A stretch of 64,000 nt of DNA from Euglena gracilis (lineage: Eukaryota): the NCBI GenBank assembly GCA_039621445.1, contig CP154954.1:42902632-42966631 (forward strand), in the 5' to 3' direction. Below the pieces are notes generated by a model. That model had not been told where the DNA came from. It ran no database searches and saw nothing but the letters and a program-made list of their open reading frames with translations. The translations under genes and the position numbers were made by a program. Below, in pieces: positions 41,701-64,000 of this stretch. Within the stretch, counting starts at the first letter, position 1. Each line of letters begins with the position of its first letter.

Positions 41701-43070
41701 AGATTGGGAAACGCCCCGCATACACAAGCAAAAACGATTTTTTAACTCATATTTGCCAATGATCCAGAAGTTTGACAACCCTGGAGGGTATGTTTTGTAT
41801 AGCTGAGAGTCCATAATATCAACTCCCACCAGAAATCAACCTGTTGTCAGTAACGTTGCCAGACGACGCTGCCGACAACCACGCAGTGCTCCTGGTGGGA
41901 TGGGGATCTGAGGGCGGCGTGGGCTATTGGCTGCTGCGCAATTCCTGCACAGGGAGGATTCAGGCCGGTGCCGATGGGAATTTTCCAGGATGTTCAGGAA
42001 CAGATGGGAAGCCGTTTGGCTTTGAGGTTGGTGGTTGAGGAGGCCCGGACCACCCCCTCCCCCCTCCTGGGGAGGTGAGGTGGTAGGGGTCCGGACCCCA
42101 GATGTTGATGGGGTTGTCCACCCCCTCCATCCCTCCTCCTTGACAGGTTCCAAAAAGAGCAAATCTTTCCTCTGGCGCTGCGCACCGGAAAATGAACAAA
42201 TAATCAAATAACAACAAGTTATAAAAAAAATAACAGATGACGCCCTTTCACTTCACTTTTGAGCAATTCTGCATTTTTTTTTTATATGTTGGTGTTTTCC
42301 GCATAAAATGTCTTCAGATTTTTTTTAATTGAGCTTATTTGGATTTATTATTCAAGGAATTAAGGAGTTTGGCCTGGTATTTGGGCTGGTATGGACGCCC
42401 TTTGCCGTCCATGAAACCGAAAAATTTCCTGGCCCCCTGCAGTTTCAAGGTAGGAGGGGGGTCCGACCCCCCCTCTCGGTGTTGGGCGGGGGGTTCTGGA
42501 CCTGGATTTAATTTGGCAACCATTCCTGTTTTTGATTTGTTAGCACTGTTCTAAGTTTTAAAAATGGATGCAACCCGGGACACAGGGGGGGGGGACGCGG
42601 GGGGGGATACGGGGAGAAAACCCCCAGGAGCATGGCGGGGTAATGCCTCAGGTCAGAGGGCAAAAATAACAAGGGCACTGAGGTACGGAACGATGAAATG
42701 GGCAAGTAACAGTAACAAGATATGACAAAGGAAGCCAAAATTTGTGATCAACCCAAAAACCTCCGAATATTCCCCCCCCTCAAATTTCAGGTGCTGTCAT
42801 CTACGTTGCTTCTCACAGGAATTTGCTTTTTTCAAAAAAAAGAAAACCCCTTCTCTGGCACCACAGCCCATCAATTTCTCAAAACGGCAGCCTGGCAGCT
42901 GTCCCGGCATTGGGGTCGTCCCTCACCCAAGGTTTCCGCCACCCTCTCCCCCTGCATCTCCCTCCACCTGCCCCTTCCTGGCGTTGGGGCAAGGGGTGGG
43001 GGGAAGCGGGCTACATGCGGATCAAGTACGGCTGCAGCCAGGTCGGCGCATTTGCCAACTACGTGGTGGA
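32790..43070 (+). CDS. Papain-family (peptidase C1A) cysteine protease, multi-exon, catalytic triad intact
   Basis: Exons ~32790-32874 ([23 protein letters not shown], prodomain), 36396-36488 (LPDQFDWR), 38118-~38273 ([23 protein letters not shown]), ~39215-39305 (GCGGG, EYPY), ~40243-40420 (GPVAVGV, FQAYTG), 41522-41542 (GIFNYM), ~41850-41946 ([17 protein letters not shown]), 42986-~43070 ([13 protein letters not shown]). Possible start ATG at 30106 (MALRLVLW) and possible C-terminal exons to ~53740 are tentative. Confidence 0.92.
33147..34211. mobile_element. CAG(G)nAAATGCG MITE with TGCGCATTTTT repeats, 6-bp TSD, nested inserts
   Basis: TSD GTTGGT at 33141-33146 and 34212-34217. Confidence 0.7.
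35477..35775. mobile_element. hAT-type MITE, 8-bp TSD
   Basis: TIR CAGGCTTGTGCTTA / TAAGCACAAGCATG; TSD GATGCAAC at 35469-35476 and 35776-35783. Confidence 0.88.
36301..36372. mobile_element. 72-bp hairpin MITE of the CCATG...CATGG (TA-target) family
   Basis: CCATGCCCCCCCATATAAGAC / GTCTTATATGGGAGGGGCATGG followed by TA. Confidence 0.7.
39707..40007. mobile_element. hAT-type MITE, degenerate 8-bp TSD
   Basis: CAGGCTTCGTTT / AAATGAAGCCTG; flanks GTACAATA / GTACAGTG. Confidence 0.7.
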
Positions 43071-43705: not shown

Positions 43706-45334
43706 TCGGTGTGGATGCATCCTTCAGGTCAATATTTCCCTCTGGCGCAGAAGGAATTTTGTGCTGTGGTGAGGTGTAGGGGGTCCGAAACCCCCCCCCC
43801 CCCAGGTGCTCTCATCCTGCCCTGCCTGACCCCCCAGTTCCTCCTCCCCTGCAGTTGTCCGAGGGTCCACGCCACGCCGATGCCCCGGAGGCCACTGCCC
43901 CATTGGGCGGGGATGCCCTCTGTCTGAGCCCGCCCCTCCCCTCCTGGCCCCTCCCGCGTCGCCCTCCCCCGTCCTGCAACCTGCTCTGCTGGGTTGGGGT
44001 GGGGGCTGGGCCGCTGACCAGTTGCCCCCCCCCCACCCCGGCCAGTGTTGCCGGCTGGCCACCCCGCCCAGGGCCCCCCCGGCACCGTGGACAGCGTGGA
44101 GAGCAGTTCCAGCAGTTCCAGCAGCTCCAGCAGCGAGGACGGTCCACAGCAGCCTGTGAGGAGCGTACCAAGCGGTGTTGTTGTTGTACCAAGGGGTGTT
44201 GTTGCCCCCTCTTCCCTGTTTCCGGGGGGGGGTCTGACCGAGAACAATTGCCAACGGTAAAATTTCTGTGAGGGAACAAATTAGACGAATCCTTAAAATG
44301 CCGGGAGAAATTCTGAACGCTCGCTTAAAACGGCTGGGAAAGAATTCTGGATGAAAATATCTCGTAAACCCATTTTCTCAGGAAAAATACAAATGAATTT
44401 AGCCCAAATCCCGATGTTTTCCAAAATTCAAAAATTGGTAAAAATCCCAAGTTTCAAATTGTATAATAAAAGCAAAGAAATGACATTTTGAAGGATCAAT
44501 GCTCTGAACGAATGATTTGGAATAATGATGCATTCCAGCGAAGCTCCAGAGAAAATTTCTGGGCGGTAATTGGAGGCAATTGGAGTTGCTTAAATTTGCG
44601 GGGAAAAATCCTGGACAGATCCTTAAAATGGCAGGAAACATCCTGGACAAGATTTTGTCCAGAATTTTCCCCACCACAATTTTTCCCGTTCAAGTCCCCC
44701 TGGCACTTGCCAGTTCCCCGTCGCTTTTTCATGGCCCAACTTCGTGAGGTCAAGAGTCAGATAATTTCTTCAGTCAATCTGCAGTTAGTTTTTGTGTTCC
44801 TGGCCATGTGACGAGGCTTCTTTTGACTCAGAAGACCCCCCTCCCCAGGGGTGTAGGGGTGTGGGCCGCAGGTCCGGGTATGGGTTTCGGCGCGAAGTGC
44901 TGAAAAAAAAATATTCAAAAATACCTTTAGACGGTCCGGTTTTCCGTGCGGTCAGTGTCGACCGCTCCCCGGGGGGTCCCATGCTGGGTTGGGTGGGTGG
45001 GAGGGGACATCCGGGGATGCAACACCCCTTTTCCCCAGGAGAGGCCCAAACCCACCACTCTTCAAAACCAGCCCACCATTCTCCCCGAGGTTTGGTGGTG
45101 GGGTCTCGGACAGGTATTTTTTCATGTTTTTGTATTTTTTTAAGTTTGGGTCAGCACAGTCATTCAGGTTGTTTTGTTGGTGGTTCTGGGCTGGTTGAAT
45201 TGGTCGGTGGACCTCCAGTGGCAAGGGGCAGTGTGGTGGGCAGATTTCAAACAAATGGGTCGTTTGGTGTGGGAAATCATGCCCATCCCCCATCCTCTGG
45301 GGTCACCGAGTGGTTCAATGTTTCCAGTGCACAG

Positions 45335-45600
<266 letters not shown>

Positions 45601-46033
45601 GCGACCCCAAAATGTTCTCCATCGGTTTCTTTGTCATCATTATCAATCATGACTGACTCCGTTTGGTCCCTCCCGGCCCAGCGACCACAGCTCTCCCCGT
45701 TTTTCCGGACCAGAGCTCAGGTCTGCCGGATGTGGAGGGGATGCGGTCGGCCACCGGTGCCTGCACCCCGCCACGCCATTCTCAGGCTTTCCCCAACGGC
45801 GACTCGGGGCTCAGACCGCTGCCGCCAGCCCCGAAGGCGATGACGCGGAAGACAGTTCCCCAGGCAGCGGCAGCCGCCAGGCAGCAATTCCAGCCCGAGT
45901 TTTTTTTTTCCATGGAGGTGGGGGCTTCTCACAGACACCGTTGCAAACGATGTTGAAAGCAGGACAAGGTTTAACCTCCAAATATAAGCAACCCCTCTCT
46001 CTTTGCAACCCCAAAATGCAAGCAAACCCTTTG

Positions 46034-46459
46034 CAGGGGGGGAATGCGTTTCGCATTTTTTCGCATTTTTCCGCATTTTTTGTGCAATTTTAAATTTTCC
46101 AGAAATGCACATTGTTGCACAATTTTTTTTTGCATTTTTGCGTGGTTTTTTTCCCAGCGCCTTTTTTACTGTTCAGCACATTTTTTCTTGATTCAACAAT
46201 TTTTTTTCGCATTTTTTTGACATTTTCTAAAAAATTTGAAACTTGCACTTTCCACGTATTTCCATTTAATTGTTGTAAATCTGATTCAGTTTGTGCATGT
46301 GTTTGGGCAATTTTTCATTTTCGTGATTTTTGCGATTTTTTTCCACTCAAAGTTTGCACATTTTTGACAGAAGGCGCGCATTTTTGTGCATGTTTTGCGC
46401 ATTTTTTTTACGCATTTTTGCGCATTTTTTCGAGGCAGGTTATCGCGTTTCCCCCCTTG
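46034..46459. mobile_element. CAG(G)nAATGCG MITE, 6-bp TSD
   Basis: TSD CCTTTG at 46028-46033 and 46460-46465. Confidence 0.75.
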
Positions 46460-49400
46460 CCTTTGGCCAATTTTCGGCCGACACCCAAACATGGCAACCC
46501 TCAAATATGATCAGCCCCTGACTGCTGGAATTTTCTTTAAAGCGACATGGAAACTGCAGGAATCAGCGATACTCCAAACATATTAACTCCTGAGGCCTAT
46601 TTTTGGAAACCCAAATATTAGGCAACTGGCTGCGTATAGTGTATGGTGTTTTTTTGACATTTTTCCGGTGAATTTTTTAATTGAATGTGATGGGATGGCT
46701 GCCTGCTGTGGCATCATGCTTTTGACAAGCCTGTTGTTTACTCAAATTAATGCTTTTACAGATGCATTTTTTCCGGATGTTTTCTTTTCTCCTGTGACAG
46801 CACTTCAGCACAGGGGATGAACCACTGCGCTTTGAAGGAGCAAAGCACCCTGCACAGGTTGCATTAGGGAATAAAACATGTGATTGATGTACAGCTAGCG
46901 GACACCCGAGTTGGGAGTTTCGGACAAAATGAAGATCCCTTTTGGACAAATTTTGTTGTCTGTCGCGGACACCTCCCCAAGAACCCCCGTGGACACCATT
47001 ATTGGTCCCCAATGGACAAGAGGTTTAGGCCCCCATGGACATTTTCGTTGAGCCCGCATGGACACTCTGTGCGGGAATCGTGATTTTTCCCCCCCCTTCT
47101 TTCAGTTTTTGTGTGAAGCCGGAGTTTACTACAGAAAAGGTGGCACGGACAGAACCGGCGTTCCCCCCCCTTTGGTTCTGTCTTGAACCCGGCGGCCCCA
47201 ACGCCGGTAAAAAAAACACATTGAGGTTTTTTTGGTTTTACACACCATTTACCCCCCCCCCCCCCCCTGTTTGGCCGCCCTCCGGGCGGGCTGGACCCCC
47301 CCTTTTTTGGCCAATTGGGGGGACAATTAGGTTTCCAGTTGTGAAGCCCCAACTGGAAAGACATTTTTTGTTTTAAGGCATTTTCGTTTGAAATGAGTAC
47401 CCCCGCCGCCCCCTGATTGGCCAATTGGGCTCAGGCCAATTGGAGGGTCGCGTTATTTAAGAATGGTCAAATCAATTTAACCTTGATACAAATGAACCAG
47501 AAAGCGTTTTTTTTTCAGTGAGTGGAGAAAAACAACCAGGGAGGACATCTTGATTTTGAAGAATTTGAAACCCACACTGAGAAGGTGCCCGTTGTGGACA
47601 TGCTGGGTCCATACTATTGTGATATGCGTGAGTGGATGGAGAAGGCTGGGAGGAGCAGGCCAGACCTTTACAAAATGCTTTTTTTTTTTCACACTGCAGC
47701 AGTTTTAGGATTCGCACAACAGAAAGGTCTAAAACAACCCCTTTGAGTGAACGATATTGGACATTCGCCAACCTGATCGGTTTGTCTGTAATTCCTAAAA
47801 GCACATCATATCATTCAGCCTGTGTCCCAGCTCACCTGGTGATGGACCAAACAGCTTTTTGAGAAACATTTGTGAAAAGATGGTGACATTTGTAAAAGTG
47901 GAGAGAGTGTTTTGGATGTTGGTTGGCAAAGAGACCACCTGTTCTGTTAAATGACCAATAAAAAGCTGTACATTGTATCATGATCTAAATTAAGGTGAGT
48001 TTAGTGCTTTTGAAAAGGTGTGTACAAACATGGACACAAACCACAGTTGCTATGTTTAGGGAATGTTTATTGCTACCAAGAAAGGTTGCTTCAGAAAAAT
48101 TTAATTTATGGACAGAAAGTTTGGTCATCAATGTGAACGTGCGGCATTGTAATGAGAAACCGTGTGGAACAGCTTCGGAGAATTTACTGGATGATCCCTC
48201 TGCTTCCCACATTTGTGACACGTTGGGAGTTGCAGCTTGGCCCCACCTTTTGGGTGGAAGATGATCAAATACACAGACTCTCAAAGACATTCCACCTAAT
48301 TTCATTTGAATTGCAGCGTTTGCCGTGGAATTTTCAGTTCCAGGTTTCAGACGGGTTTCCCTGCAAAAAGTGTCCATCGGGGCCTGAACTTCATGGGCCA
48401 GGGGGTTTTCTATTTGTGTCCCCGGGGGCCCTACAGAAAAGTCCCCCAGTCTCCCATTTCCTGCCCAGCGGGGGCCAACGAAAATGTCCAGCGGGGTCCA
48501 ACAATTGTGTCTGCCGGCTGTAAAACAAACACCCCCAAATGGTGAAAACAGGTCGAGAGTGTATTTCTGGATCCCTTGGACCATCGCCTATCCGCCCAAA
48601 ACATAAATGGATAAAATGCTTTTTCGGATTTGAGTTTTCGACCCCATTCAACGCTGGGACCATACACTGCTTTCTGTCGGACCCCACTCCCCCCCCCAAG
48701 CAGGGCTGTACTCCGCAACCCCATGGGTGGTTGGTGGGGGGGGGTCGACCCCGCCTACCAGGCCACTAGTATTTCCAGGGGCGCAAATTTCTAGGTCAAA
48801 AATTTTTTTTCTTTCGGCGCCAAAGGAAATTTCCTTGCACGGATGCTGTGATGCCGCCATTGGCTGCTGTGCGTGTGGCATCCACATCCGCACCTAAAAT
48901 AAAACAATGCACACCGGCCCTGAGGGGCCCTGGAAATCTGCCTGAGCTGCTGAGTCGACCACCGACGGTTCTGCCGATCCCTTTCAGGGATGTGTTCCAA
49001 CCAAGTGAAGTGAAGCAGTGTGAAACTCCCCAGGAACTGTCAGTCTTTTGCCTGCATGTTTTCTTGTGTTAGCATCAGCATTGTATTCATCGCCGTCCAA
49101 AAAGTTTCGCAGTTTTTGTTTTCCCCGTTTCTTTCCTCAAATGAATCGCAAAGAAACTCACGTCGCAGAACCCGTCCTCGTGGGTTTCCCATTGGGTGGT
49201 GCTGTCCCACGCCTCCTCACAACGCCTGGCCCGCAGCCGCTGACTTCTTCGGAGGTCCCCCCCCCCGAGGGGACACACCCGAGGTCGATAAATATTCTCA
49301 CCCGTCTCTGCCTTTGACGGATCGAGTAGCAGTGGCTCGGACAGCACTGATGCCCCCACTGCGGCCCCTGCCACAGAGCGTCGCTCGGGCGGAATGGGAC

Positions 49401-49686
49401 CCCACTCTGGAGGGGATCCGCCCTGCATTCAATCTCGGCCTTCTGTCAAGTTTTAATTAGCAGCTTTCACCTGAGTGATGACATGGGGTGGAGCCCCCAC
49501 AGTGCCCCCCACGGTGCCCCCCCCTACACCCCCTCCCAGTGATTTGACACAGAGGAGGTTCATTTTTTTTAAATGCAAATTGATGTCCTCCCTCAACAAG
49601 TAATCCAGACAAAACTGCAGCACTGCATGCCCGCCCATGCTGGAAGGTTAGGGTTGGTGACCAATTGAAGAGGTTGGGTTAGGGTT

Positions 49687-50189
49687 GGATACCCGCCCCC
49701 CCCCCCGGGCAATTGACGCCCCCGGGCAATTGACGCCCCCGGGCAATTGACGCCCCCGGGCAATTGTCACCCCTGGCTGTGCCGGCCAATTTGTCACCCC
49801 GGGAAATTGTCACCCCCCTCTGTGCTGCCCGATTTGTCACCCCCCCCACAGAAGATGTTTGTGAACTTTCTTTTCGCCGACACGACTCGATTGATCCTCT
49901 ATTTCGCTACAACGTGCTGAGAAATGTCACATACCAAATGCTCTGCACAATATCACAACCATAGCTGCATTTTTGCGTGTTCACTGGTGTTTCAGATGGT
50001 GTTCTTGGTCATTTGGATTTAATGTGGCCTACATGGGTGGGCAATTGACGCCCCCGGGCAATTGACGCCCCCGGGCAATTGTCACCCCCCTCTGTGCTGG
50101 CCAAATTGTCACCCCGGGAAATTGTCACCCCCCTCCGTGCTGCCCGATTTGTCACGCGACAATTGCCCGGGGGGGGGCGGGTAGGTCCA
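49687..50189. mobile_element. Fold-back element with 18-bp tandem repeats (CGGGCAATTGACGCCCCC-like)
   Basis: Inverted ends TACCCGCCCCC..CGGGCAATTG / CAATTGCCCG..GGGGCGGGTA; internal tandem copies; TSD unclear. Confidence 0.65.
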
Positions 50190-50510
50190 GGTTGACGCTG
50201 AAACCAGGCCCAAATTAGGCCAAAATTTAGGACCATCTGTGGCCTATCTTCCCAACTTTATCCTCACCCTAACCCTGATCCTCTTCCGAAGCAGAACCGT
50301 GCTCTAGCCCTATTCCGACAAAAAGCAAACACCCAAAAAATGAGTGTGGAAAACATGGGGATACTTGGCTTTCAGGCTCTCTTGCTGAACGCAGGGGCCT
50401 GTCGCACTTTTTTTTTTGAAAATTGACATTTTTTTTAATTGAAAAAAGCACATATTTATCGAGTCGGAAAAATTCCCGGTGTCTTTCCACAAATTTGGGG
50501 GAATCAGTGG

Positions 50511-53241
50511 CTTAGGCGGCCTAACTCGCACTTAAGGTTTTCATTTTTAGCTTGCGCTTTGGCGCAAATTTTCGATTTCGTTGAGACCCGGCGGTAGAAC
50601 CCACCCTTTTGACCCTCTGGTTCCGCGGAGACCCTCCACGGTGGCGTGTGCATCATTTTCCGATGTCGGAACCCGGGGAACAGGCCCAATTTTGGTGTTT
50701 TTCGGCCTGTGCACCATTTTTTAAAAGGTCCAAAACCCTGGGTTTGACCGCTGAGACACGTGAATTTTCCCAAAAATGGGCCAAAACCCCCGGTGTGAGT
50801 CCCTCGTTTTTGAAGCCTTGACAGTGTTCCCCGGATGGTGCCACACAGTCCGGGTGACAATTGGCCCTTTTTGTTGCTTTTTTGGCTCTGTGATATGTCC
50901 GTGAAGAGTTTGGTTGCTGAGGCATCCAGAGGGTGGACTCTACATGCACGTTGTGAAAAGTTGGAAAAAACGGCGTGTCACAGAGTTGTGATCCCTGGGT
51001 GCTTGAAGCGTGAGGAGCGGTACAGCGGGAACCACTCTGGTGGGGGGGGTTGGGGGGACTGAGGACAAGCCTAGGGACCTCTCCCAACGTCTGGTGAGCA
51101 ACGCCAGGCCCCACACTGCCGGGCACAGAAGGCAATGGTTAAGGACATTTGCGCTTAAGCGCAAATTTTTAGCTTGCGCTTAAGCGCAAGTTAAAAAATT
51201 TGCGCTTAAGCGCAAGCTAAAACAGAAGCCGCTGAGTTTATGGGAGTCCCTCTGATGTGTTACGGTGTGTCGGGGGCCCCTCTCTGAACGGCCAGAGTGC
51301 AGGCTTGGTGAGGAAATACCTTGCGCCGAAGCGCAAAGGACATGCCTACATAATGCACTGCTTGTTCATCCACATTACACGTCAGCCGCGTGTTTGCACT
51401 TCTCAGTTTTTTGTATGATGGTTTGCGCTTCGGCGCAAGGTATTTCCTCACCAAGCCTGCACTCTGGCCGTTCAGAGAGGGGCCCCCGACACACCGTAAC
51501 ACATCAGAGGGACTCCCATAAACTCAGCGGCTTCTGTTTTAGCTTGCGCTTAAGCGCAAATTTTTTAACTTGCGCTTAAGCGCAAGCTAAAAATTTGCGC
51601 TTAAGCGCAAATGTCCTTTTAAATGGCAGATGTATTTGAATGCCTTCGTGCTGTGTGAGAAGGTGGGGGATAGAGGAGAATGGTGAGGGGGGTTTGTGTG
51701 CTGCTGTGCCAGAAGCTGGGTTGGTGCTTTTGAACTATTCAGGTGCTGGGGAGGAAGTGGTTGTTACAATAAGACGAATGGTGGGCGGTAGGCTGTGGTG
51801 CCTCAGTGACCTTGCACTCGGTGCACAAAGTGGGGTTTTTGGGGATGTTGACAGAAAGGCTTTTTCTGCTGAACAATGCCTCCATCTGCCTGGTGGCATG
51901 TGGCTGTCTGGTGGGTTGCAAAATACCGAAAAAAGGCGTGTCAGCATGTCTTCCCTTCTCCGCCGCTGTTGATGGGCCCTTTCAATTTCTCAATTCCATT
52001 CGCTCATCCCCAAAGTTCTGTGCTTCAAATCCTGGGCGAGGAAAGGGGGGTGACGAGCTTCTTTAAAACACCCTTTCGACGCCTAAAACTGTTTCCTCGG
52101 CTGTGGTTCCCAGGGTTTATCTGGTACCTGTTCTTTTCCACACAGGTATTTTCCGACTTTTAAAAGTCGGCCAAAGAGAAGGGCCCCTCAGGCACGCTTA
52201 AGTGCGAGGCAAGTGGGAGGAACCTCCGGCACTGGAAGTTGGGTTTACAACGCATAGGACAAGGCACGTCTGGCTGTCAAGAAGTTGGTGGTTGTTTTCA
52301 CAGACCAGGGGGTTGGCTTCCTGTCCCAGGCAAGGCTTCCCTCCATCTGAGCTCTGTCCGCTCTGGTGATGAGATGCTTCCAGGACTGCTCTCTCCACCC
52401 GCAGTGATAAAAATGGAAAATACAACTTGATGGCTGTTGCGCCAAAGCGCAATGGGTAGGCTCATGAAGAATGGAAATTTAAGAGTTATATTGCGCCAAA
52501 GCGCAAGTAGAAATGCACTTTTAAAATTGTCAAAGCAACGTGGCTCTTGCGCCGACGCGCAATGTTGACCAGTTTTAAGTCAACGTGACTGAGAGTAGGC
52601 TTCCGTCCCCCTGTTCTACATTTTTGTGCTCCATCCCCTCTGGTGGTCTTACTCTACCAGGGCCGTTCTCTCCCTGCGTTGTGAGATAAGTTTTAACCAG
52701 TTATATTTGCGCTTCGGCGCAAGCCATGTTGCTTTTGCAATTTTAAAAATTGTATTTCTATTTGCGCTTTGGCGCAAGGTAACTCGTAAATTTCCATTCT
52801 TCATGAGCCCACCCCTTGCGCTTTGGCGCAAATGGAAACACACGTTGACTCAAAAGTTGTTATCATTGTTCAAATGCGGCAATGGTCACCCACGTGTTTA
52901 ATCACAAAAAAGTCAAAAATTTGCGCCAAAGCGCAAATGGTTTTATTTTTTGTAATTTCAAAAATTTGCGCCAAAGTGCAAATGAGTAATGGAGTCCCCT
53001 CGTTTCATCACCCGCCGCCTTGTGTTCATGCACACTGGGACTCGGGAGCGCTGTGCCTGTGGACCGTGGAGTTCCTAGTCGTTGCTTTCGTCCTCAGGCC
53101 CTGGGGTGCAGGGAGACACTATTTTCAGACTGTCTCGAGTCTCAGGCCACGGTGGTCGAAAACCAAACTTTTTTTGGGATTTGCGCGTCGGCGCAAATTT
53201 ACAGTCACTTTCAAAGCTAAGTGCGAGTTAGGCCGCCTAAG
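50511..53241. mobile_element. 2.7-kb non-autonomous TIR element, copy 1, 5-bp TSD
   Basis: TIR CTTAGGCGGCCTAACTCGCACTTA; TSD AGTGG at 50506-50510 and 53242-53246; colinear with 56152-58631. Confidence 0.9.
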
Positions 53242-53399
53242 AGTGGCCGTACTTTTGGGTTGGCCAGGGTTTAGAAAATGCCGACTTTTCCTCCTCCGCC
53301 ACCCACCCCCTGGAAACCACCCACTTGTCCTCGCGGTGACCGGGCGTTGCCCCACCACCTATTCCGCCCAGACACTGTTTCCCGGAGCGGGATTGCCCG

Positions 53400-53740
53400 G
53401 CGCCGCCCTGCCCTGCCAACCTCCCCCTCCGCCCCGGCGCCGTCCTCGCCGCGGCGCCGCCCCGCCCCCCGCCCCCCGCCGCGGCCGACGCCTTCGACGC
53501 GGCCGCCGGGGCCGCCCAGACTACCACCCCGGGCGCCACGCAGGGACCACCGGCGGCGGCGGGGGCGGCGGTGGCAGCGGCGGCGCTCGTCCTGTTGGCG
53601 GCGGGCTACGTCGGGGTGGGGCGGCGGCCGACCCGCCCGGCGGCGGGGCCGTGGCTGCGGGAGGAGGAGGAGGGGGGGAATGGCACTGGCGTCCGGGTGT
53701 CCCCGGCGCACGGGGGGCCCGATCGCTGGCGTGGCAGAGA
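53400..53740 (+). CDS. Probable exon encoding an Ala/Pro-rich linker, a transmembrane segment and a charged tail
   Basis: GC-rich open frame ...AAAGAAVAAAALVLLAAGYVGVGRRPTRP...REEEEGG; gene assignment uncertain. Confidence 0.45.
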
Positions 53741-54237
53741 ATTGTGCATATTGGTGTGCGGATGCTCTTGGCTCTGAGGCTCTTCCAGCCCATGTCCTCT
53801 GACAGGTCAACCACCTCTGGGGACCCCTGATAGTTTCAATGGGGGTCAACAAACGACAGTGCATGCAGGAGGTTCGAGGGGTCTTCCTTCAAAGGTACTG
53901 GAGGCCCCCGGCGTGACGCCAAGAGGAGGGGTTGGCAGAAAGGCTGCGCCAGCCCCAGGTCTCTGGACCCTCCCATCGCAGAATGAGCTAAACTGCGGCC
54001 CCATTCTGTCTGTGGGTGGCGGACTCGATCGGTGCCCTGAGGTTGTGTGCCCACCGGACCGCCGAAGGCACCCGCAGGGGACTGCGGGGCCCGCTGTGAG
54101 CCCGTCGGCCCCCGCGACCAGGACCGGCCTCCCAAGCCATACCCTTTGGCAACACTCTGAGCCAGGACGAAGCTCGCAGTTGGCAGAAGACGATCCAAGG
54201 CGGAGGAAGCAAGAGCCTGGTCGTTCCACATTGGGGG

Positions 54238-54405
54238 CAGGCTTCTTTTTAAGTCAGAAGACCCCCCCCCCCGCCGAAATTTTTTTGAAAATTGTTTTTA
54301 ACGGGCCCGATTTTAGCCCCCCCCCCCCAGGGGGGTCCTGCGCCACCTGGGTGGGTGGGGGGGGGACCCCCCCTCCCCCCCCCCGGGGTCTTAAAAAGAA
54401 GCCTG
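54238..54405. mobile_element. hAT-type MITE (CAGGCTTCTTTTTAAG family), 8-bp TSD
   Basis: Same TIR as 8220-8509; TSD ATTGGGGG at 54230-54237 and 54406-54413. Confidence 0.9.
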
Positions 54406-54849
54406 ATTGGGGGTGGCCACTGAGCGCGTGCCCCCCCCCCAATGGTGCACTGCATGCACCAGAACTCACCACAGCCCCCCTCCAATCGCAGCGGGGGGAG
54501 GCGGCAAGGCCCAGGCCGCCCTGCCCGCAGCCAGTGAGCTGCAGTGCACTCACATGACCCCGGTGGGCCGCACCGCCCGCCGCACCACGCCGCGCCTTCC
54601 CGCCGGGCGGTCGCCGGTGGCGGTGCCCCAGCCCCCAGGCGAGGATGTAGGGGGCATGCCCTTGCGTGGGGTGGTCCGACCCCCCCCCCAGGGGTGACTG
54701 ACTGGTTTTTGGCTCCGGATCCAGCCCCAGAAGTGGCACACCAGAATCAATTCAAAAAAAAAAAACTTCACCAGGGTCTTCTGGATTTGGGCCATTTTTG
54801 CTTGAGCACCAGAGTGATCGGTTGGCTTCTATTCTTGACTGAGAGAGAG

Positions 54850-55305
54850 CAGGGGGGGGGAAATGCGTTTCGCATTTTTTCGCATTTTTGCGCATTTTTT
54901 GCGCATTTTTTCAAATTTTCCAAAAATGCGCATTTTTGCGCATTTTTTGCGCATTTTTTCGTTTTTTTCAGCACATTTTTTTGCTTTTTGGCACATTTTT
55001 TCGTGATTTTCCAAAATTTTCGCATTTTTTGACCATTTTTGCAATTTTTTGCAAAAATTTGAAATTTTTTGACTTTTTTTGAAACGTACATTTTCCTCAT
55101 TATTCTACATAATTTCTTCAAATTTAGTGCCATTTTTGCATGTTTTTGGGTAATTTTTGCATTTTCGTGATTTTTGCACATTTTTTCTCGGATTTTGCAC
55201 ATTTTTGCGCATTTTTTCCAAAAATGCGCATTTTTTGCGCATTTTTTTTGCGCATTTTTGCGCATTTTTTCCGAGGCCGGGCGAGCGCATTTCCCCCCCC
55301 CCCTG
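54850..55305. mobile_element. CAG(G)nAAATGCG MITE inserted in a (GA)n tract
   Basis: Same ends as the 33147 and 46034 copies; flanks GAGAGAG on both sides. Confidence 0.75.
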
Positions 55306-56151
55306 GAGAGAGAAAGGCCGAGTTGTGTTCCTCACTCTTGTCATGTGTCCCCTCCGTTGTGGAAGCTTTGAGACCTCCACGGACCGGATTTCCCCATCCC
55401 TCACCACAGGCAGGCCCCAATGCATTCGGGGGAGGGGTTGCATGGCCGTCGCCTGCGCCTGTCCCTCCGCCGCGGTCCCATCCACATCCCCGTCCGCCGT
55501 CCCGCGGGTGTTTGCATTCGGCCCGCGGCGACCCCCTGCCGACCTATGCCCCGCCCCGCCCCGCCCACCCCTGCGGTGGTCCGGGGCCGGGGCAGGCCCG
55601 CATCGCCCAACTCCCCCCCCCCCCGCCGCCTGCCCACTCGGATCCTCCTGGTTGCCGCAAGCAACTGCTCCCCTGGGGCCTGCCTTTGGGGGCCGGGCGG
55701 AAGCATGAGCGCTGTGCCGAAGGCCCTTGTGCACCGCTGAGGGGGATTCGGAACGGGGACTAGGCCGGGGTTGGGGGGCACCTTCCTGGCCAGAGGTCCT
55801 GTGACTGGGATTTCATTTTCAGAAGCCCCATAACCACAGAAGAGGCCAAATCGTGACACACGTTGAAATTGGGGGAAATCGAAGATGGTGCAATTACCCG
55901 AGATGTGATGCCGCATGGGTCAGGGCAGGGAAGATTGCTATCGAAGGAGTTGAAAGGTTGCATTGGCACCAGGCTTCTTTTTTAAGTCAGAAGACCATCC
56001 CTGGGGGGGGTCTGGGCTAGACCTCCCCCCTGGGGAGGGGGTCCCGGGTCGGAGGCCCAGGTGGGAGTTTCAACGCGAAGCGGCGATAATGATTTGGGAA
56101 TGTCCTCAGACGGTCCCCCAGGGAGTCCTGCGCCTGGCTGGGTGGGTGGGG

Positions 56152-58631
56152 CTTAGGCGGCCTAACTCGCACTTAAGGTTTTCATTTTTAGCTTGCGCTT
56201 TCGCGCAAATTTTCGATTTCTTTGAGACCCAGCGGTAGAACCCACCCTTTTGACCCTCTGGTTCCACGGAGACCCTCCACAGTGGCGTGCATCATTTTCC
56301 GATGTTGGAACCTGGGGAACAGGCCCAATTTTGGTGTTTTTTTGGCCTGTGCACCATTTTGAAAAAGGTCCAAAACCCTGGGTTTGACCGCCGAGACACG
56401 TGAATTTTCCCAAAATGGGCCAAAACCCCCGGTGTGAGTCCCTCGTTTTTGAAGCCTTGACTGTATTCCCCGGATGGTGCCACACAGTCCAGGTGACAAT
56501 TGGCCCTTTTTGTTTTTTTTTTTGGCTCTGTGATATGTCCGTGAAGAGTTGGCAGCTGAGGCATCCAGAAGGTGGACTCTATGCACACGTCGTGAAAAGT
56601 TGGAAAAAACGGCGTGTCACAGAGTTGTGATTCTTGTGTGCTTGAAGCGCGAGGAGCGGTACAGGGGGAACCACCCAGGTGGGGGGGTTTGGGGGGACTG
56701 AGGGCAAGCCCAGAGACCTGTCCCAACGTCTGGTGAACAACGCCAGGCCCCACGCTGCCGGGAACAGAAGGCAATGTTTATGGACATTTGCGCTTAAGCG
56801 CAAATGTTTTAGCTTTAGCTTCGGCGCAATGTATTTCCTCACCAAGCCCGCACACTGGCCGTTCAGAGAGGGGCCCCCAACACACCGTACCACATCAGAG
56901 GGACTCCCGCAAACTCAGGGGCTTCTGTTTTAGCTTGCGCTTAAGCGCAAATTTTTAATTTGCGCTTAAGCGCAAGCTAAAACATTTGCGCTTAAGCGCA
57001 AATGTCCTTTCAAATGGCAGATGCATTTGAATGCGCTCGTGCTGTGTGAGAAGGTGGGGGATAGAGGAGTATAATGAGGAGGGTTTGAGTGCTGCTGTGC
57101 CAGAAGCTTGGTTGGTGCTTTTGAACTATTCAGGTGCTGGGGAGGAAGTGGTTGTTACAATAAGACGAATCGTGGGCGGTATTCTGTGGTGCCTCAGTGA
57201 CCTTGCACTCAGTGCACAAAGTAGGGTTTTTGGGGATGTTGACAGAAAGACTTTTTCTGCTGAACAATGCCCTCCATTCTCCTGGTGGCATGTGGCTGTC
57301 TGGTGGGTTGCAAATTACTGGAAAAAGGTGTGTCAGCATGTCTTCCCTTCTCCGCCGTTGTTGATGGGCCCTTTCAATTTCTCAATTCCATTCGCTCATC
57401 CCCAAAGTTGTGTGCTTCGAATCCTGGGCGAGGAAAGGGGGGTGACGAGCTTCTTTAAAACACCCTTTCGACGCCTATAACTGTTTCCTCGGCTGCGATT
57501 CCCAGGGTTCATCTGGTACCTGTTCTTTTCCAAACAGAAATTTTCCGACTTTCAAAAGTCGGCCAAAGAGAAGGGCCCCTGAGGCACGCTTAAGTGCGAG
57601 GCAAGTGGGAGGAACCTCCGGCACTGGCAGTTGGGTTTACAACGCATAGGACAAGACACGTCTGGATATCAAGTAGCTGGTGGTTGCTTTCAGACTCCAG
57701 GGGGTTGGCTTCCTGTCCCAGGCAAGGCTTCCCTCCACCTGAGCTCTGTTCGCTCTGGCGATGAGATGCTTCCAGGACTGCTCTCTCCGCCGGCAGTGAT
57801 AAAAATAGAAAATTAAAATTGATGGCTGTTGCTCCACAGGCAAGGGGTAGGCTCATGAAGAATGGAAATTTAAGAGTTATTTTGCGCCAAAGCGCAAGTA
57901 GAAATACATTTTTAAAATTGTAAAAGCAACGTGGCTCTTGCGCCGACGCGCAATGTTGACCAATTTTAAGTCAACGTGACTGAGAGTAGGCTTCCGTCCA
58001 CCTGTACTACATTTTTGTGCTCTATCTCCTCTGGTGTTCGTACTCTACCAGGGCCGTTCTCTCCCTGCGTTGTGAGATAAGTTTTAAACAGTTATATTTG
58101 CGCTTCGGCGCAAGCCATGTTGCTTTTGCAATTTTAAAAATTGTATTCTATTTGCGCTTTGGCGCAACATAACTTTTAAATTTCCATTCTTCATGAGCCT
58201 ACCCCTTGCGCTTTGGCGCAAATGGAAACGCACGTTGACACAAAAGTTGTTATCATTGTCCAAGTGCGGCAGTGGTCACCCACATGTTGAATCACAAAAA
58301 AGTCAAAAATTTGCGCCAAAGCGCAAATGGTTTTATTTTTTGTAATTTCAAAAATTTGCGCCAAAGCGCAAATGAGTAGTGGAGTCCCCTCGTTTCATCA
58401 CCCACCGCTTTGTGTTCCTGCACACTGGGACCCGGGAGCGCTGTGCCCGTAGACCGTGGAGTTCCTAGTCGTTGTTTTCGTCCCCAGGCCCTGGGGTGCA
58501 GGGAGACACTTTTTTCAGACTGTCTTGAGTCTCAGGCCACGGTGGTCGAAAACCAAACTTTTTTTGGGATTTGCGCGTCGGCGCAAATTTACAGTCACTT
58601 TCAAAGCTAAGTGCGAGTTAGGCCGCCTAAG
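56152..58631. mobile_element. 2.5-kb non-autonomous TIR element, copy 2, 5-bp TSD, nested in a CAGGCTTC MITE (55970-58669)
   Basis: Same TIR as copy 1; TSD TGGGG at 56147-56151 and 58632-58636. Confidence 0.9.
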
Positions 58632-58904
58632 TGGGGGGACCCCCCATGGGGGGGTCTTAAAGTCGCCTGCGGCCTGTGTGTCTTGGCTCGGAAAGTCAAG
58701 CAAAAAGTATGCCTTGACCTAACCATCTTCCTTTTTTTCTGATCCAGCCAACCCCTCCCCCTCCCCCCGCACCCAGACGCAACGAAGCGTAATGACGCAA
58801 AAAAAGGTCTTTTAATGCTTGAAATGCTTCAGCTCCAGGGTTTGCAGTGCAGGGCCACGCTTCCATGCCCCCCCCCAGCCCTCCGCCGGCTCCTCCCTCC
58901 TCGC

Positions 58905-58932
58905 CGGCCGCAGCCTCGCCTGTCTCTGCCAG
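58905..58932 (+). promoter_or_regulatory. Putative spliced-leader trans-splice acceptor
   Basis: Pyrimidine-rich tract ending CTGTCTCTGCCAG, 16 nt upstream of ATG 58949 that starts a signal peptide. Confidence 0.45.
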
Positions 58933-58948
58933 GCACCCCCCACTCCAA

Positions 58949-61441
58949 ATGGCCGGGGGGCACTGGCTGCTCGCCACCGCCCTGCTCGCCCTCTGCAGCC
59001 CCGCGGTGGCAGACCACGCTGCTGTATTTGTCATTTCTAAGGCCCATCCGGGGACGGTCTGCAGGGACCCACCCCCCACTCCCTGGAGGTTTGGCGGCAA
59101 GGCCTGCGCCCGCCAGCCTGGCCGCATTGGGAGTGACTCCCTCTCCACCCGTCATCTTGGCCCTCCCGAATTTTTTTGGCGGTTCCCAAAATTCCGCAAA
59201 AAAAAAACCGCCCGGTGTTTTCCCTCCGCCCCGCTTTTCTACCAAGTATTTTTTTTGAACAAAATAGTGTGGCAGGTTTGCGGTTGTGATTGTGGACGCT
59301 GATGTGTATTCACTAACCGCAGTTGACCTTGGGAGACAAGAGACCCTTCCCCCCCAGGGGGCCCCCCAGCGGTGGACGCCCTGGCTTTATGGCCCCGTCC
59401 CGCTTCCGAGTGTCCGGCAAACCGTAAATCAACGGCGGCGTGGGGCAGACCCCCTCACAGCGGCGGACCTCGCCGCGCTGCGGGCGCGGGCCGCGCCAGA
59501 GGGCTGGACGTTCGCCGTGGGGCGGGGCGTCGCTTACGCCACAGGGCCCCCATCCCCCGGGGTCCCGCCAGCCGGCCAGCCGGCCCCCTTTCTCCCGCCA
59601 GCCCAACTTCGCCCGCCTCTGAGCCGGACTCCCCCGGGGACCGCTACGCGACGCCCCGCCGTGGGTCGCAACGCCGCCACCGGCCGCCGCCTCGCGGACC
59701 TCACCGGCCTCGCCCCGCCGCCGGACTTTGTGGAGGCCGCCGCGCCCAGGGCGGCGATGGGGGAGGGGGGGAATGGCAGGGGGCGGCGTTGCTCTTCCTT
59801 CCCCCCTTCGGCTGCCCCGGGCGATGCCGCCTGCGGATGCCCCCCACAAGGATCCCACCCACTCAAGTGTCCTGCGGGTTCGATCCATTTTTGGGCGACT
59901 TTCTCTTGGTACCTGAAAGATTATAAAACTTGAGACAATCCAGAAGATAAATGGAATTGGCGAAAAATGCCCCCTGTTTTTGAAAGTGGACGTACCCCTT
60001 CCCTTCCGGCCCCCCCAATGTTGTTGAACATGGGGAGGGCACAAAAGATGTTCCAAAAAAAGCTCAATATTTGGGGGTTTCCTGGCTTATTTTGGAATAT
60101 GTTGCCTGACGTATTTTTTCCCATTTCAAACTTGAGCAAGTTGAAATACGGATTGCAAATACTGCAAACAAAAGATACCAAAGTCCTGAATGGTATAGTT
60201 TATAATATTAAGCACTGCGAACATGGCAATCTTCGTGTTGAGGAAAACCCCTTCACAAAAAACACAGAACCCTCCTCCCTGAGGGTCTTGATATTCCACC
60301 CCAACGTAGAACCAGGGTTGTTTTCAGGGGGCTGGGGTTGGTTTTGTTCCAGAATGTCCCAAGCACTCAAATTGCATCAATATTTTGGATCTCCAGTTCC
60401 CCCCTATTTTTTTCCCGATTACTTTCCTGGGCAGGGGTTTTTTTAGTCGTGGACCCCCGGGGGGGGGGTAGGGTGGATGGGTCCGGCCGAGCCCCCCCCC
60501 CCCCTGGGGGGTGTCCCCCCGGAGGGGGGTGGGATATACTTTTTGGCGCCGCAGGCGCCGAAAAAATTCTAGTTTTAGCACTTTTCGCGATTTTTCGGCC
60601 ATTTTTTTTGTGGGTCCCCCGGGACCCCTCCCTGGGGGGGGGGTGGGTGGGTGGGGGGGACCCCCCCTCCCCCCGGTCTTAAAAAAACCCCTGTTCCTGG
60701 GAGTGCAATCCAAATGAATGCATCTCCAGGTGTATTGCACTGCAAATGTTTCCTAGAACCTGGAGGCCTCCCAACCCCCCACACACCATAACCTGGGAGG
60801 TGCCCCCCCCCCCAGAGGGTGTCCCAGATGTCCCCCTGAAAGCGACGCTGCCCGCCACAGAGACGACGGATCTGGCCAGCCCGCTGCCGGAGGAGTTTGA
60901 CTGGCTGGTCTTTGTGCAGCAGTGGTACGGGGTCCTGGGGCAGCCTGACCAGACGGCAATTGTCCCGCCTTCCGTCTGGCAGAGCATCCCGTCAATGAGT
61001 TGCCAATTTCCCGTTGTGTGGTTGGCTTGTGTTGTTCTCCATCGTTCTGAAGTTGACAGCATGAGGTTAACTAAAAGTTGTTGACCCGCCCCCCACAATG
61101 GAGAGTCTGTGGAATGGAGTGGACAACCCCCCCAGAGGAGGGGTTCCTCCATTTTCGCCTGAAAGGTTTTTGGGTTGGGTTAGTGAGTGAGTGGGTGGAG
61201 GCTCAGAAAGAAACTTTGGCATGTGTATGCGTAGTGTGTGTGCATTGTGTTGTGTGTGTGTGTGTGTGTGTGTTGTGTGGTGTATGTTGTGCTGTGCTGT
61301 GTTGCTCTGCACTGTGCTGCGTTTGGATGAGTTGAGCTTAGTGGTGAATGTGCATGATGTGAGTTGTGTGAATGTGCACATTTTGTGGGGGGTGTGAGTG
61401 TGTGAGTGAGTGAGTGAGTGAGTGTGTGTGTGTGTGTTGTG

Positions 61442-61518
<77 letters not shown>

Positions 61519-63811
61519 CACTCGTATATCTTATAGAATGTGTCAGTTTACCCCTGTCGGCAGCGACATCCCTGTGAGAGACCAGGGACAATGCGCCGCC
61601 AGCTGGGCTTTCGCCACTGTGGGGATGATGGAGTGGGTGCTGAAGATCAACACCGGTGTCACAAACAGCCAGGGATGCCACAGAAATTTGGGTGCCACCG
61701 CTGTTTCGTGTCTTTTCTCTTCCGGATGGAATTTGCTCCAGGGGGCATTTCTAAGTGAACAATGACGTGTCGGGATTGTTGGATGTTGGACCTCAATCAG
61801 TCACAGACACACGCATAAAACACACACACACACATACACACACACACACACACACTTAAAACACACACACACACACACACGTGCACACACTCACACAAGT
61901 GCAGACAGCATACATCTCTCTAAGGTTTTGCGAACCCCCCGGGGGGGGGGCGGCTGCAGCCAGCCCCAATTTGGGCCCAGCCCAGCCGCAGCAGCCCCCT
62001 CCCCCCGGGGGGGGGGGGTGCTGCCAGCCCTAGCTAGCCAGCCCCTTTTTTGGGGGGTCCAGCCCAATTTTTTTTTGAAAAACTGTGTTCAAAAGTGGCC
62101 AAAAATGGGGTTTGGGGGGCGTTTGGGCCATTTTTGGGGGGTTTCAGATGCATCATTTTTTCAAACCTGTGTTCTGCAGGACATTTTTGGGCATTTTTTC
62201 CGATTTCAGTCCAGCTCGCCTTGGTTCGGGTCCAGCTGGGGTCCACCCCCCCCCTGGGGGGGCGGGCTAGCCAGCCCAAATTTCTAGCCCTAGCCCAGCA
62301 ACCCCCCCCCCCCGGGTCCTTAAAGAGGTGTATGGCGGACAGAAGGCAGGCAAACCTGATCTGGGCCTCCCTGTGGTTGATCTGTCCGTGCAGCACCTCC
62401 TGTCTTGCCGGCCCAACCGAAAGCAGACGGCCCAAGGCAGTCCCGGAATTGTCGGGCGCAGCCTGGCCGATGAGTGCGCCCCCGATCACCCGGGGATGCG
62501 ACCCGGGGCCCCTTGCCGGGGACGGCTGCCGCGGGGGCTGGTTCACCCCGCAGATGCTGCTGCAGCCCGGGGCCATCGAGGACCGGCGCTTCCCGTACGC
62601 CGGCCGGGACGTCGACTGCGTGACCACCGACCTCTGCCCGGGTGGAGGGGACGCGGCGCTTGGGGAGTGTCTGTCCCTGGGGGAGAGGAGCCGGTCTGAA
62701 TGGACCCTCCGAGAAGTTTCAGCCGATGCCGAGCAACGTCTTGTTGCCCAGCAAAAAGAACCGCAAGTGAGCCAGCCATCCCCCCCAGGGTGTCAAGTGG
62801 GGGAGGGGAGGGGGGTCAGACCCCCTCCCCCCCTTCGGACCGAGGGGGGGGTCCAGGACCCCCCAGGAACCCCGGAGAGGCAGGGATAGATGGGAAGCCT
62901 TGAAGGGGGGGTCGGACACCCTCCCCCCTACCTCGAAACTGAAGGGGGCTGGGAAAGTTTTCGGTTTTGTGAACAGGCAAAGGCCCGAAACGCAGGCCAA
63001 AATTGGGCAAAAATCCCTGATTTTTTATTGAAACTAATTCCAAAAATGCCCATTTTTTGAAAAATTTTACCCACTTTTTTTCACGTAGAAAACACCAAAA
63101 CATCAAAGAATGCAATGGCAGGGGGGCCCAGACCCCCCCCTACCACCCACCTCAAAACCGAAGGGCTTCCCATCTCTCCCTGGGGAGGGGGTCCAGGCCC
63201 TCTCTCGGGGGGAGGGAGGGAGTCCAGGCCCCCCCTCCTCCCCGTTCACCTGATGCCCTGCCCCCCACCCCCTGCAACCCTCCCCCCGGCCCTGCCCGGT
63301 GGCCAAGGCGTTCGGCCACGAGTACATCCCCCTGCCCCCGCAGGAGGAGGGGCGGGTGCATGCCATCAAGCGCATCATTTGGAACGAGGGCCCGGTGGCG
63401 GCCGCAGTCCAGGGTTCGATACAAGGGGGGTGTATGGGGTTTAGGCTGCCCCCCACCCCCCCTCCTCTTGGACCGAGGTGTCCAGCCCCCCCCCCCCCCG
63501 CCTTGCAAGGGGTCCAGATTGACCGTGGAGGGTATCCGGGTCCCCCAAAAGGTCAATTTTCTCCTTCTGGCACTTTGCGCCCTTTTTTTTTGGAATTTGC
63601 CCAAAACGTGCCAAAATGGCACTTTTGGCTGACTTTGGGTGGCAAAATTTTCCGCCTGGCGTTTTGTGCCGGGCCAAAAATCGGTCACCCGGGCCATGCC
63701 ACTGTTTCGATGGGGGGGGTCCCTTCCCGTTCCATGAAGAGGGCTCCCCACCTGCCCTTATATTGAGCCCTGCCGCAGTCGCAGTGAACCGCGCCTTTCA
63801 GGCCTACACTG
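58949..63811 (+). CDS. Papain-family (C1A) paralogue with catalytic Cys replaced by Ser; runs off the window end
   Basis: Exons 58949-59011 (signal peptide MAGGHWLLATALLALCSPAVA), 59448-59519, 59664-59743, 60844-~60930 (LPEEFDW), 61562-61666 (VRDQGQCAASWAF), 62379-62429 (DLSVQHLLSC), 62521-62635 (GCRGGWF, FPY), 63294-63406 (GPVAAA), 63778-63811 (FQAYTG); aligns colinearly with the upstream protease. Confidence 0.92.
59520..59663 (+). other. 144-nt nonconventional intron with 11-bp TIR and 7/8 TSD
   Basis: CCGTGGGG[CGGGGCGTCGC...GCGACGCCCCG]CCGTGGGT; removal gives WTFAVGRNAAT, matching paralogue [11 protein letters not shown]. Confidence 0.88.
60432..60693. mobile_element. hAT-type MITE, 8-bp TSD
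   Basis: CAGGGGTTTTTTT / AAAAAAACCCCTG; TSD TTCCTGGG at 60424-60431 and 60694-60701. Confidence 0.88.
61230..61515. repeat. (TG)n-rich microsatellite
   Basis: Interrupted TG runs; a (CA)n tract follows at ~61820-61895. Confidence 0.9.
63407..63777 (+). other. Nonconventional intron with 18-bp imperfect TIR and perfect 8-bp TSD
   Basis: CCGCAGTC[CAGGGTTCGATACAAGGG...CCCTTATATTGAGCCCTG]CCGCAGTC; removal gives GPVAAAVAVNRAFQAYTG. Confidence 0.9.
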
Positions 63812-64000
63812 GCACAGAAGCTTCTTGCCCACACCGAAAACAAACTCGCGCGCACACACACATGCACAGGCAAAGTCTATCAGGTAAAACCCCCCAAGTG
63901 TAAAATCAGTTTCATATTTGGGCGGAAATTTCAAGACCCCCACGGGGGGTTTAATCATCTGTCCTTTTCCATTTTGTGCCTAGTAGTCCTCTTGTGTTGC

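Follow-up and report, generated by a model that had tools for sequence, protein, structure and literature searches.

The DNA analyzed here is a 64-kilobase (kb) stretch of Euglena gracilis contig CP154954.1 (64,000 nucleotides [nt] in all, hereafter the window), which carries the 5′ part of a gene for a papain-family, cathepsin-B-like protease. Four introns of this gene, and a fifth intron in a minus-strand gene elsewhere in the window, begin and end in inverted repeats that are themselves bracketed by 8-nt direct repeats. [quoted passage not shown]

The protease gene and its introns

Joined together, the modeled exons of the protease gene make a single open frame with a signal-peptide-like start and the usual blocks of the papain family. 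Exon 61562-61666 matches Pfam Peptidase_C1 (E=1e-6); a search for homologous proteins with exon 62500-62640 gave no match. The catalytic Cys of the family is replaced by Ser in this gene (QGQCAASWAF at 61585-61605, compared with 38142-38162 in a paralogue within the window, where the catalytic CGSCW is intact), a change that may make this copy an inactive protease or an altered one.

Eight introns are complete (Table 1), and a ninth seems to begin at 63812. All eight follow a common plan: 3 nt, an inverted-repeat arm, the body, the second arm, 5 nt, and then a purine, which is the first base of the downstream exon. Terminal stems of 5 to 16 base pairs (bp) are present in every one. Judged by this intron code, the window is nuclear euglenid DNA. 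We refer to the introns with an 8-nt flanking repeat as introns 1 to 4 and to those without a repeat in this register as introns A to D. Intron 2, of 144 nt, is open in frame with exons 2 and 3, so its retention would add 48 residues and keep the frame.

Eight-nucleotide repeats flank the intron elements

From the letters alone, the first-pass annotation had described an inverted repeat running from +4 to −6 and bracketed by 8-nt direct repeats in four introns of the protease gene. This anatomy was reproduced exactly, the 8 nt before +4 agreeing with the 8 nt after −6 at 7, 7, 6, and 8 positions in introns 1, 2, 3, and 4, respectively. The fifth element, which it had placed at 6697-7148, is real, but those coordinates are 2 nt off; in the +4/−6 convention, the intron is 6699-7150. 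The borders are not GT/GC-AG: introns 1 to 4 start with GA, GG, GC, and GT and finish with CA, TG, CT, and CA. The elements themselves are noncoding and 136 to 650 bp long, and removal of intron 1 preserves the reading frame in the joined-exon model. The minimum-energy folds of introns 2 and 4 are closed by the TIR stem, with z = −3.6 for intron 4.

All six mismatches in the stems of introns 1, 4, and 5 (the fifth intron) are transitions that remain G.U compatible on the sense strand of the host gene, an outcome with a chance of 1/64 if both kinds of transition are equally likely; in elements nested within introns, both kinds of transition mismatch are present. This sense-strand bias, in a small sample, argues that the stems are probably used in the transcript.

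The repeat is tied to a length of 8 nt. Flank matching was highest at t=8 in 13 of 14 elements (6 to 8 of 8 positions) and reached at most 5 at t=6, 7, 9, or 10. Among 1036 CRG...CYG inverted-repeat candidates in the window, 10 have a perfect adjacent 8-nt direct repeat and none has one of 9 to 13 nt, and ten dinucleotide shuffles gave a mean of 0.0 repeats at ≥7 nt. Six of these 10 candidates are true CAGG elements; the other four belong to the CGGGCCGACC satellite at 27.7-31 kb and were set aside. The satellite-like array (27700-31000) is made of palindromic units (CGGGCCGACCATGGTCGGCCCG and variants) that produce spurious TIR/TSD matches. Within the protease gene, four of the eight complete introns show a flank match of at least 6/8, for which the empirical chance per pair is 0.009 (binomial P for ≥4/8, ∼1e-6). 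The first-pass annotation had staked its reading on a peak at 8 bp relative to shuffled intron pairs; within the 64-kb window this peak is sharp, and shuffled sequence gave none. In this GC-rich DNA, checking for an open frame across the individual excision sites had no power to discriminate.

Transcript evidence

Reads from three RNA-type runs and one DNA run were mapped over 44001-64000; the RNA label of runs X15 to X20 is a guess, and the findings come from 15 of 539 joints and 24 of ∼89,000 pieces. RNA mapping had been proposed by the first-pass annotation as a check, and it places the junction of intron 3 as claimed. A 690-nt contig presumed to be RNA (X17 record 22) covers 61562-61666, 62520-62633, and 63292-63405 and joins 62633 to 63292 at its adjacent positions 576 and 577. 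The 658 nt skipped are, within a two-base GC slide, the same splice as intron 3. The same contig also sets one boundary each of three further introns: 3′ for intron B, 5′ for intron C, and 3′ for intron D, where it restarts at 62520 after 50 unlisted bases. It has a depth of 5.23 and spans position 60876 in exon 4. Upstream of exon 5 it holds 307 bases, compared with 318 predicted by the gene model, which fits a contig beginning 11 nt into the coding sequence, as a matter of consistency and not of proof. The unspliced form is present in contigs of the DNA run (X1 records 6 and 8).

One contig of run X15 (depth, 12.1) carries C>A at 60876 and G>A at 61624, in exons 4 and 5, a sign that the transcript differs by allele or strain.

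Empty sites in the paralogue and in a homologue

A tblastn search of the window with the modeled protein located the paralogous papain-family gene ∼20 kb upstream of the protease gene, on the same strand. It has another intron set, and two MITEs are nested in its introns. Viewed at the codon level, its coding sequence is colinear with that of the protease gene, and no gap interrupts it where introns 2, C, 3, and 4 lie. CAGTGGGG occurs once in the paralogue at the intron 2 position, and the protease gene has CCGTGGGG to the left and CCGTGGGT to the right of the element. The paralogue has interruptions at, or at most 3 codons from, the positions of introns B and D and another at some point in the intron A region; of the four TSD-less introns, three are thereby at or near sites where both gene copies are interrupted. 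As judged from this alignment, the TSD-bearing introns 2, 3, and 4 (the three that can be judged) are private to the protease gene.

The fifth intron and a nested MITE (8220-8509) are hosted by a minus-strand gene at 5610-9259, which has no Pfam match; among its library homologues, the best is P0001 (908 amino acids [aa], 52 to 64% identity over two exons). This protein is colinear across the fifth site, with residues 101-124 aligning to 7201-7130 and residues 117-166 to 6701-6552, and its ...LKRLCVYFFCDLVRTRREAPEH... matches ...LKRLCVFHYCDLL joined to RTPAEAPEH... at the intron site. The search for empty sites in paralogues that the first-pass annotation had suggested thus found four uninterrupted positions in the paralogue and, in a homologous protein, one more at the fifth intron. 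Since the host gene of the fifth intron lies on the minus strand, the element would be removed in either orientation.

Related elements that split no exon

Elements with the same construction also occur where they split no exon. There are at least 8 of them in the window, and 5 of 8 have perfect 8-bp repeats (Table 1). Across 15 elements, the ends share a terminal consensus of ∼16 nt, CAGG...TTAAG: positions 1 to 4 are C, A, G, and G in 29, 25, 24, and 28 of 30 ends, and positions 13 and 14 are T and A in 21/30 ends each. TAAGG or CAAGG at positions 13 to 17 is found both in intron elements 4 and 5 and in the nested MITEs. Conservation at these positions exceeds what the published splicing code requires (PMC12501133). 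The motif GGGTCCRG is ∼4-fold enriched in the elements (16 of 37 matches in 10% of the window); we do not use it as support.

Elements 8220-8509, 54238-54405, and 60432-60693 are related in sequence, and the 3′ part of the last is ∼80% identical to 8460-8509 and 54349-54405. Summed DNA word depth reaches 291,780 in the bin of 60432-60693, compared with ∼99 in unique bins, and lies at 5e4 to 3e5 in this group, a hundred- to a thousandfold above unique bins; summed word depth is not copy number, so these bins are read only as highly repeated. The element nested in intron 3 has a second copy at 41995-42474, the 5′ end of which is truncated, so no TSD is readable. A metagenome match to the 20-nt end of the 8220/54238 family involved a single, unrelated, AT-rich contig and was dismissed as chance.

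Table 1 Genes, introns, and transposon-like elements in the window, with their terminal and flanking repeats
Feature	Position	Strand	Inverted repeat	Flanking repeat	Remarks
Papain-family (cathepsin-B-like) gene	58949-63811	+			5′ part of gene; 3′ end incomplete
Protease gene exons	58949-59011, 59448-59519, 59664-59773, 60844-60916, 61562-61666, 62379-62429, 62521-62635, 63294-63406, 63778-63811	+
Intron 1	59012-59447	+	stem CACGCUGCUGU/ACGGCGGCGUG	TGGCAGAC/GGGCAGAC (7/8), at 59007-59014 and 59443-59450	element 59015-59442
Intron 2	59520-59663	+	TIR CGGGGCGTCGC (11/11)	CCGTGGGG/CCGTGGGT (7/8), at 59515-59522 and 59659-59666	element 59523-59658
Intron A	59774-60843	+	7-bp stem CAGGGGG...CCCCCTG	0/8	contains nested MITE 60432-60693
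Intron B	60917-61561	+	stem CAGTGGTA/TACCCCTG	in register 2/8	5′ boundary from frame and stem
Intron C	61667-62378	+	stem CAGGGATGCC/GGCCTCCCTG	0/8	contains nested MITE 61909-62334
Intron D	62430-62520	+	stem CAAGG/CCTTG	in register 3/8	91 nt
Intron 3	62636-63293	+	TIR CGGGNGGAGGG	CCTCTGCC/GCCCTGCC (6/8), at 62631-62638 and 63289-63296	element 62639-63288; contains nested element 62881-63182
Intron 4	63407-63777	+	TIR CAGGGTTCGATA/CAGGGCTCAATA, two G.U positions	CCGCAGTC/CCGCAGTC (8/8), at 63402-63409 and 63773-63780	element 63410-63772
Fifth intron, minus-strand gene	6699-7150	-	TIR CAGGGCGTTGC (11/11)	AGCAGGTC (8/8), at 6694-6701 and 7146-7153	element 6702-7145
Nested MITE in intron A	60432-60693		TIR CAGGGGTTTTTTTA (14/14)	TTCCTGGG (8/8)
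Nested MITE in intron C	61909-62334		TIR CATACATCTCTCTAAGG	GCAGACAG/GCGGACAG (7/8)
Nested element in intron 3	62881-63182			6/8
MITE	2700-3201		TIR CAGGGGATTTCTTAAG (16/16)	CTTCCCTG (8/8)	context unknown
MITE	8220-8509		TIR CAGGCTTCTTTTTAAG	ACTGGGAC (8/8)	within intron of minus-strand gene
MITE	54238-54405		16-nt TIR identical to that of 8220-8509	ATTGGGGG (8/8)	family of 8220-8509; context unknown
MITE	35477-35775		TIR CAGGCTTGTGCTTA/CATGCTTGTGCTTA	GATGCAAC (8/8)	within paralogue intron
MITE	39707-40007		TIR CAGGCTTCGTTTCA	GTACAATA/GTACAGTG (6/8)	within paralogue intron
Paralogous papain-family gene	32788-40419	+			aligned pieces 32788-32886, 36375-36479, 38127-38267, 39227-39301, 40243-40419

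Splicing code and proposed mechanism

Nonconventional introns make up 71.8% of the introns of E. agilis, and short direct repeats are found on 84.4% of introns (Nomura et al. 2025, PMC12501133). The knock-in signature given in that paper is N3-CDG...CHG-N5-6 and then, past the junction, R, with the 5′ spacer fixed at 3 nt and the 3′ spacer best at 5 nt; the code demands no more than the initial three paired bases plus the spacers. Terminal stems are required for splicing, introns without repeats are spliced, and the spacer sequence is arbitrary (PMC12501133). A 2024 Mobile DNA review (PMC11282704) places TIRs at +4 to +6 and −8 to −6, describes "TSD-like" repeats, and names a circular intron as the product of nonconventional splicing. 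The earlier suggestions of a transposon origin to which the first-pass annotation alluded are readily found: Milanowski et al. 2014 (PMC3935182) put forward the MITE hypothesis at a time when no transposable elements had been identified in euglenid genomes, the review takes it up, and the discussion in PMC12501133 suggests a MITE-like origin, with the origin still termed unclear in 2025.

The introns described here resemble these euglenid nonconventional introns (PMC12501133, PMC3935182, PMC11282704) in their non-GT-AG borders, the pairing, in four of the eight complete introns of the protease gene, of CAG at +4 to +6 with CTG at −8 to −6, the terminal stem, the purine at the first exon base, and direct repeats that make the junction slidable. 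In their available portions, PMC12501133, PMC3935182, and PMC11282704 give no rule of repeat length, no 3+5 link, no superfamily, and no nonexonic elements with the same ends, and the sliding-distance histogram in Fig. 1B of PMC12501133 could already show an 8-nt peak. The terms "hAT," "8 bp," and "8-bp" are absent from the available text of the review (PMC11282704), as are "hAT" and "duplication" from that of PMC12501133.

In the mechanism that we propose, MITEs with TIRs of ∼11 to 17 nt starting with CAGG or CGGG would insert and duplicate 8 bp of target. In the pre-mRNA, the inverted repeats would pair and form a stem, and the nonconventional splicing activity would cut 3 nt upstream and 5 nt downstream of it, the offsets being those of PMC12501133. 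Because 3+5=8, such a cut would remove the element plus one copy of the duplication and return the transcript to its pre-insertion sequence; because CAG...CTG reads alike on both strands, restoration would be independent of the orientation of insertion. Over time, the duplication and the outer stem would decay, and what splicing needs would remain. The sum 3+5=8 and the removal of the element plus one TSD by the +4/−6 geometry had been put forward in the first-pass annotation, and both the register of the repeats and the anatomy of the elements support them. Its further idea, that the splicing system reads transposon ends as splice signals, agrees with the published code (PMC12501133); it stands as an interpretation, and a MITE origin is in itself not new. 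We infer that a transposase made the insertions and that the agreement of the 3+5 spacing with the duplication length is a match rather than a coincidence. Alternatively, it may be that only elements fitting the offsets survive in exons, which would give the same pattern in one window.

Several observations weigh against the MITE interpretation. Half of the complete introns of the protease gene (A, B, C, and D) lack an in-register repeat. The triplets of intron 1 (CAC/GTG) and intron D (CAA/TTG) fall outside the published code; the other six of eight introns fit the CDG/CHG test, with CAG/CTG in four (A, B, C, and 4) and CGG/CCG in two (2 and 3). Element 23838-24267, whose TIR (CAGGGCTGGATAGAGGT) is perfect over at least 17 nt, has a 7-bp repeat (CACACTC) and not an 8-bp one. 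For introns 1, 2, and 4, the junctions are deduced from reading frame, geometry, and comparison with the paralogue; among the RNA joints listed, none falls on them. Pfam recognized no transposase in the 170 longest of the 201 open reading frames (ORFs) of ≥110 aa in the window, nor, in the same set, any Pfam family besides Peptidase_C1. Finally, intron elements 1, 2, 4, and 5 each occur only once within the 64-kb window, and introns 1 and 2 have a DNA word depth close to that of unique sequence (∼99), so membership in a multicopy family is not established for the introns themselves. The check for multicopy families proposed by the first-pass annotation, confined here to the window, came out divided: it succeeded for the 8220/54238/60432 group and not for these four intron elements. 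As for the introns without repeats, their stems are 5 to 10 bp long, compared with 11 to 16 bp in TSD-bearing introns. These shorter stems, and the interruption of the paralogue at or near three of the four, fit the claim that older introns keep the stem and lose the TSD.

Alternative origins of the repeats

Two explanations would account for the repeats without transposition. Milanowski et al. 2016 (PMC4770533) attributed gapC intron 4, gained in E. agilis ACOI 323 and flanked by eight-nucleotide direct repeats, to double-strand-break repair, and the repeats seen here could by extension be footprints of such repair with captured filler DNA. That intron is like ours in being nonconventional, absent from other strains, and flanked by eight-nucleotide repeats; it is, however, a single case, whereas here the 8-nt repeat recurs together with shared transposon ends. 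Filler DNA would yield neither a fixed length nor common ends, yet the repeat keeps to 8 nt in 13 of 14 elements and always adjoins a TIR with the shared ∼16-nt consensus, and related copies elsewhere have 8-bp repeats of their own. We therefore regard break repair as very improbable. The other explanation takes the inverted and direct repeats as splicing signals selected in place, their likeness to a transposon being convergent. The need of splicing for stems (PMC12501133) speaks for it, as do the stem mismatches that stay G.U compatible on the sense strand, as expected of selection acting on RNA. However, in a code with arbitrary spacers that splices repeat-less introns (PMC12501133), direct repeats are not required; nor does the code need end positions 13 to 17, which are conserved. 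Moreover, perfect 8-bp repeats bound elements nested within introns, where selection for splicing is unexpected. In-place selection is thus, to our minds, just as remote, and insertion of MITEs remains the reading that we prefer.

If the introns are MITEs, their superfamily is a separate matter. hAT transposons duplicate 8 bp of target, have ends of the consensus YARNG, with which CAGGG is compatible, and favor the target nTnnnnAn. The first-pass annotation had called the elements hAT MITEs; the TIR anatomy of nonautonomous elements and the constant 8-bp TSD stand, and the hAT label is weakened by mixed ends, a missing target consensus, and the lack of a transposase. YARNG is matched by the CAGGG ends of introns 4, 5, A, and C and of elements 2700-3201, 60432-60693, and 62881-63182, but not by CAGGC (8220 family), CGGGG (introns 2 and 3), CACGC (intron 1), and CATAC (61909). 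The target consensus is absent, with T at position 2 in 4/13 TSDs, A at position 7 in 4/13, and both in 0/13; no hAT domain was found in the 170 ORFs searched, and a search of the available literature found no paper tying hAT to Euglena introns. We accordingly hold the hAT assignment of the MITEs only tentatively, as possible and somewhat short of even. The same mechanism with another superfamily that makes 8-bp TSDs, such as Merlin, we consider rather unlikely. PMC8101967 reports, for an E. gracilis assembly, two families of Merlin elements that have a conserved DDE motif and TSDs of 8 bp, and these are the sole 8-bp-TSD transposons that we found reported for E. gracilis in the available literature. 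Merlin TSDs measure 8 or 9 bp, which would also match the published spacers of 3 plus 5 to 6 nt. On the other hand, Merlin ends are described as having a conserved terminal GG, whereas the ends here are CA or CG followed by GG only at positions 3 and 4; no 9-nt repeat was found in the window; and the accessible text of PMC8101967 draws no link to introns.

Comparison with other introns and wider meaning

Micromonas and Aureococcus have introner elements (Huff et al. 2016, via PMC11282704) that are likewise MITE-like, with TIRs and TSDs, become introns on insertion, and are removed exactly with the help of the TSD. They are spliceosomal, with GT/GC-AG sites that come partly from a 3-nt TSD, whereas the elements described here have no such sites and are cut at distances measured from the stem. 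The introner elements of Amoebophrya (PMC7789003) are closer in form, being noncanonical introns with inverted repeats of 8 to 20 nt in a hairpin and direct repeats across the borders. Those direct repeats are 3 to 5 nt long and variable; here, the length is 8 nt and the distance to the cut sites is fixed. Bulge-helix-bulge introns, the substrates of the tRNA splicing endonuclease, are alike in outline, in that distance from a helix determines where they are cut; the circular intron published as the product of euglenid nonconventional splicing fits this likeness. We offer it as a lead without any claim of membership; among the references of PMC3935182, the bulge-helix-bulge route appears as a possibility.

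Most of what we report substantiates the published MITE hypothesis; what appears to be new is the quantitative link between 3+5 and the length of the duplication, along with concrete elements. How euglenid nonconventional introns arose has been an unanswered question since the 1990s, and the window supplies such elements with a shared end consensus, a fixed 8-bp duplication, nested copies, and empty sites. The relation 3+5=8 would be a simple reason for the experimentally measured spacers of 3 nt and 5 nt, and it makes the hypothesis directly testable.

A broader proposal goes further, and we give it a little less than an even chance: nonconventional splicing would be an RNA-level excision matched to one lineage of transposons with 8-bp TSDs, the offsets would exist because they sum to the duplication, most nonconventional introns would trace back to insertions of this kind, and the autonomous partner, whether hAT-like or not, would be findable from its CAGG...TTAAG ends. 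If so, a new insertion into an exon, in either orientation, would be silent at once, perhaps explaining why ∼70% of introns in Euglena are nonconventional and most of these "slidable." Euglena would then join Micromonas, Aureococcus, and Amoebophrya as a case of transposon-made introns at the genome scale, arrived at by a nonspliceosomal route.

Other repeats in the window

Introns B and C contain long (GT)n and (AC)n microsatellites (61200-61520 and 61800-61900), which the read mapping passed over as repeats. Upstream of the protease gene, summed DNA word depth is very high (1e5 to 7e5) in blocks 49337-53338, 54673-55339, and 56007-58674. Joints in the DNA contigs have a constant offset of ∼5.39 kb (52120 to 57520 and 53039 to 58431), suggesting that 51-53 kb and 56.6-58.6 kb may be copies of one repeat.

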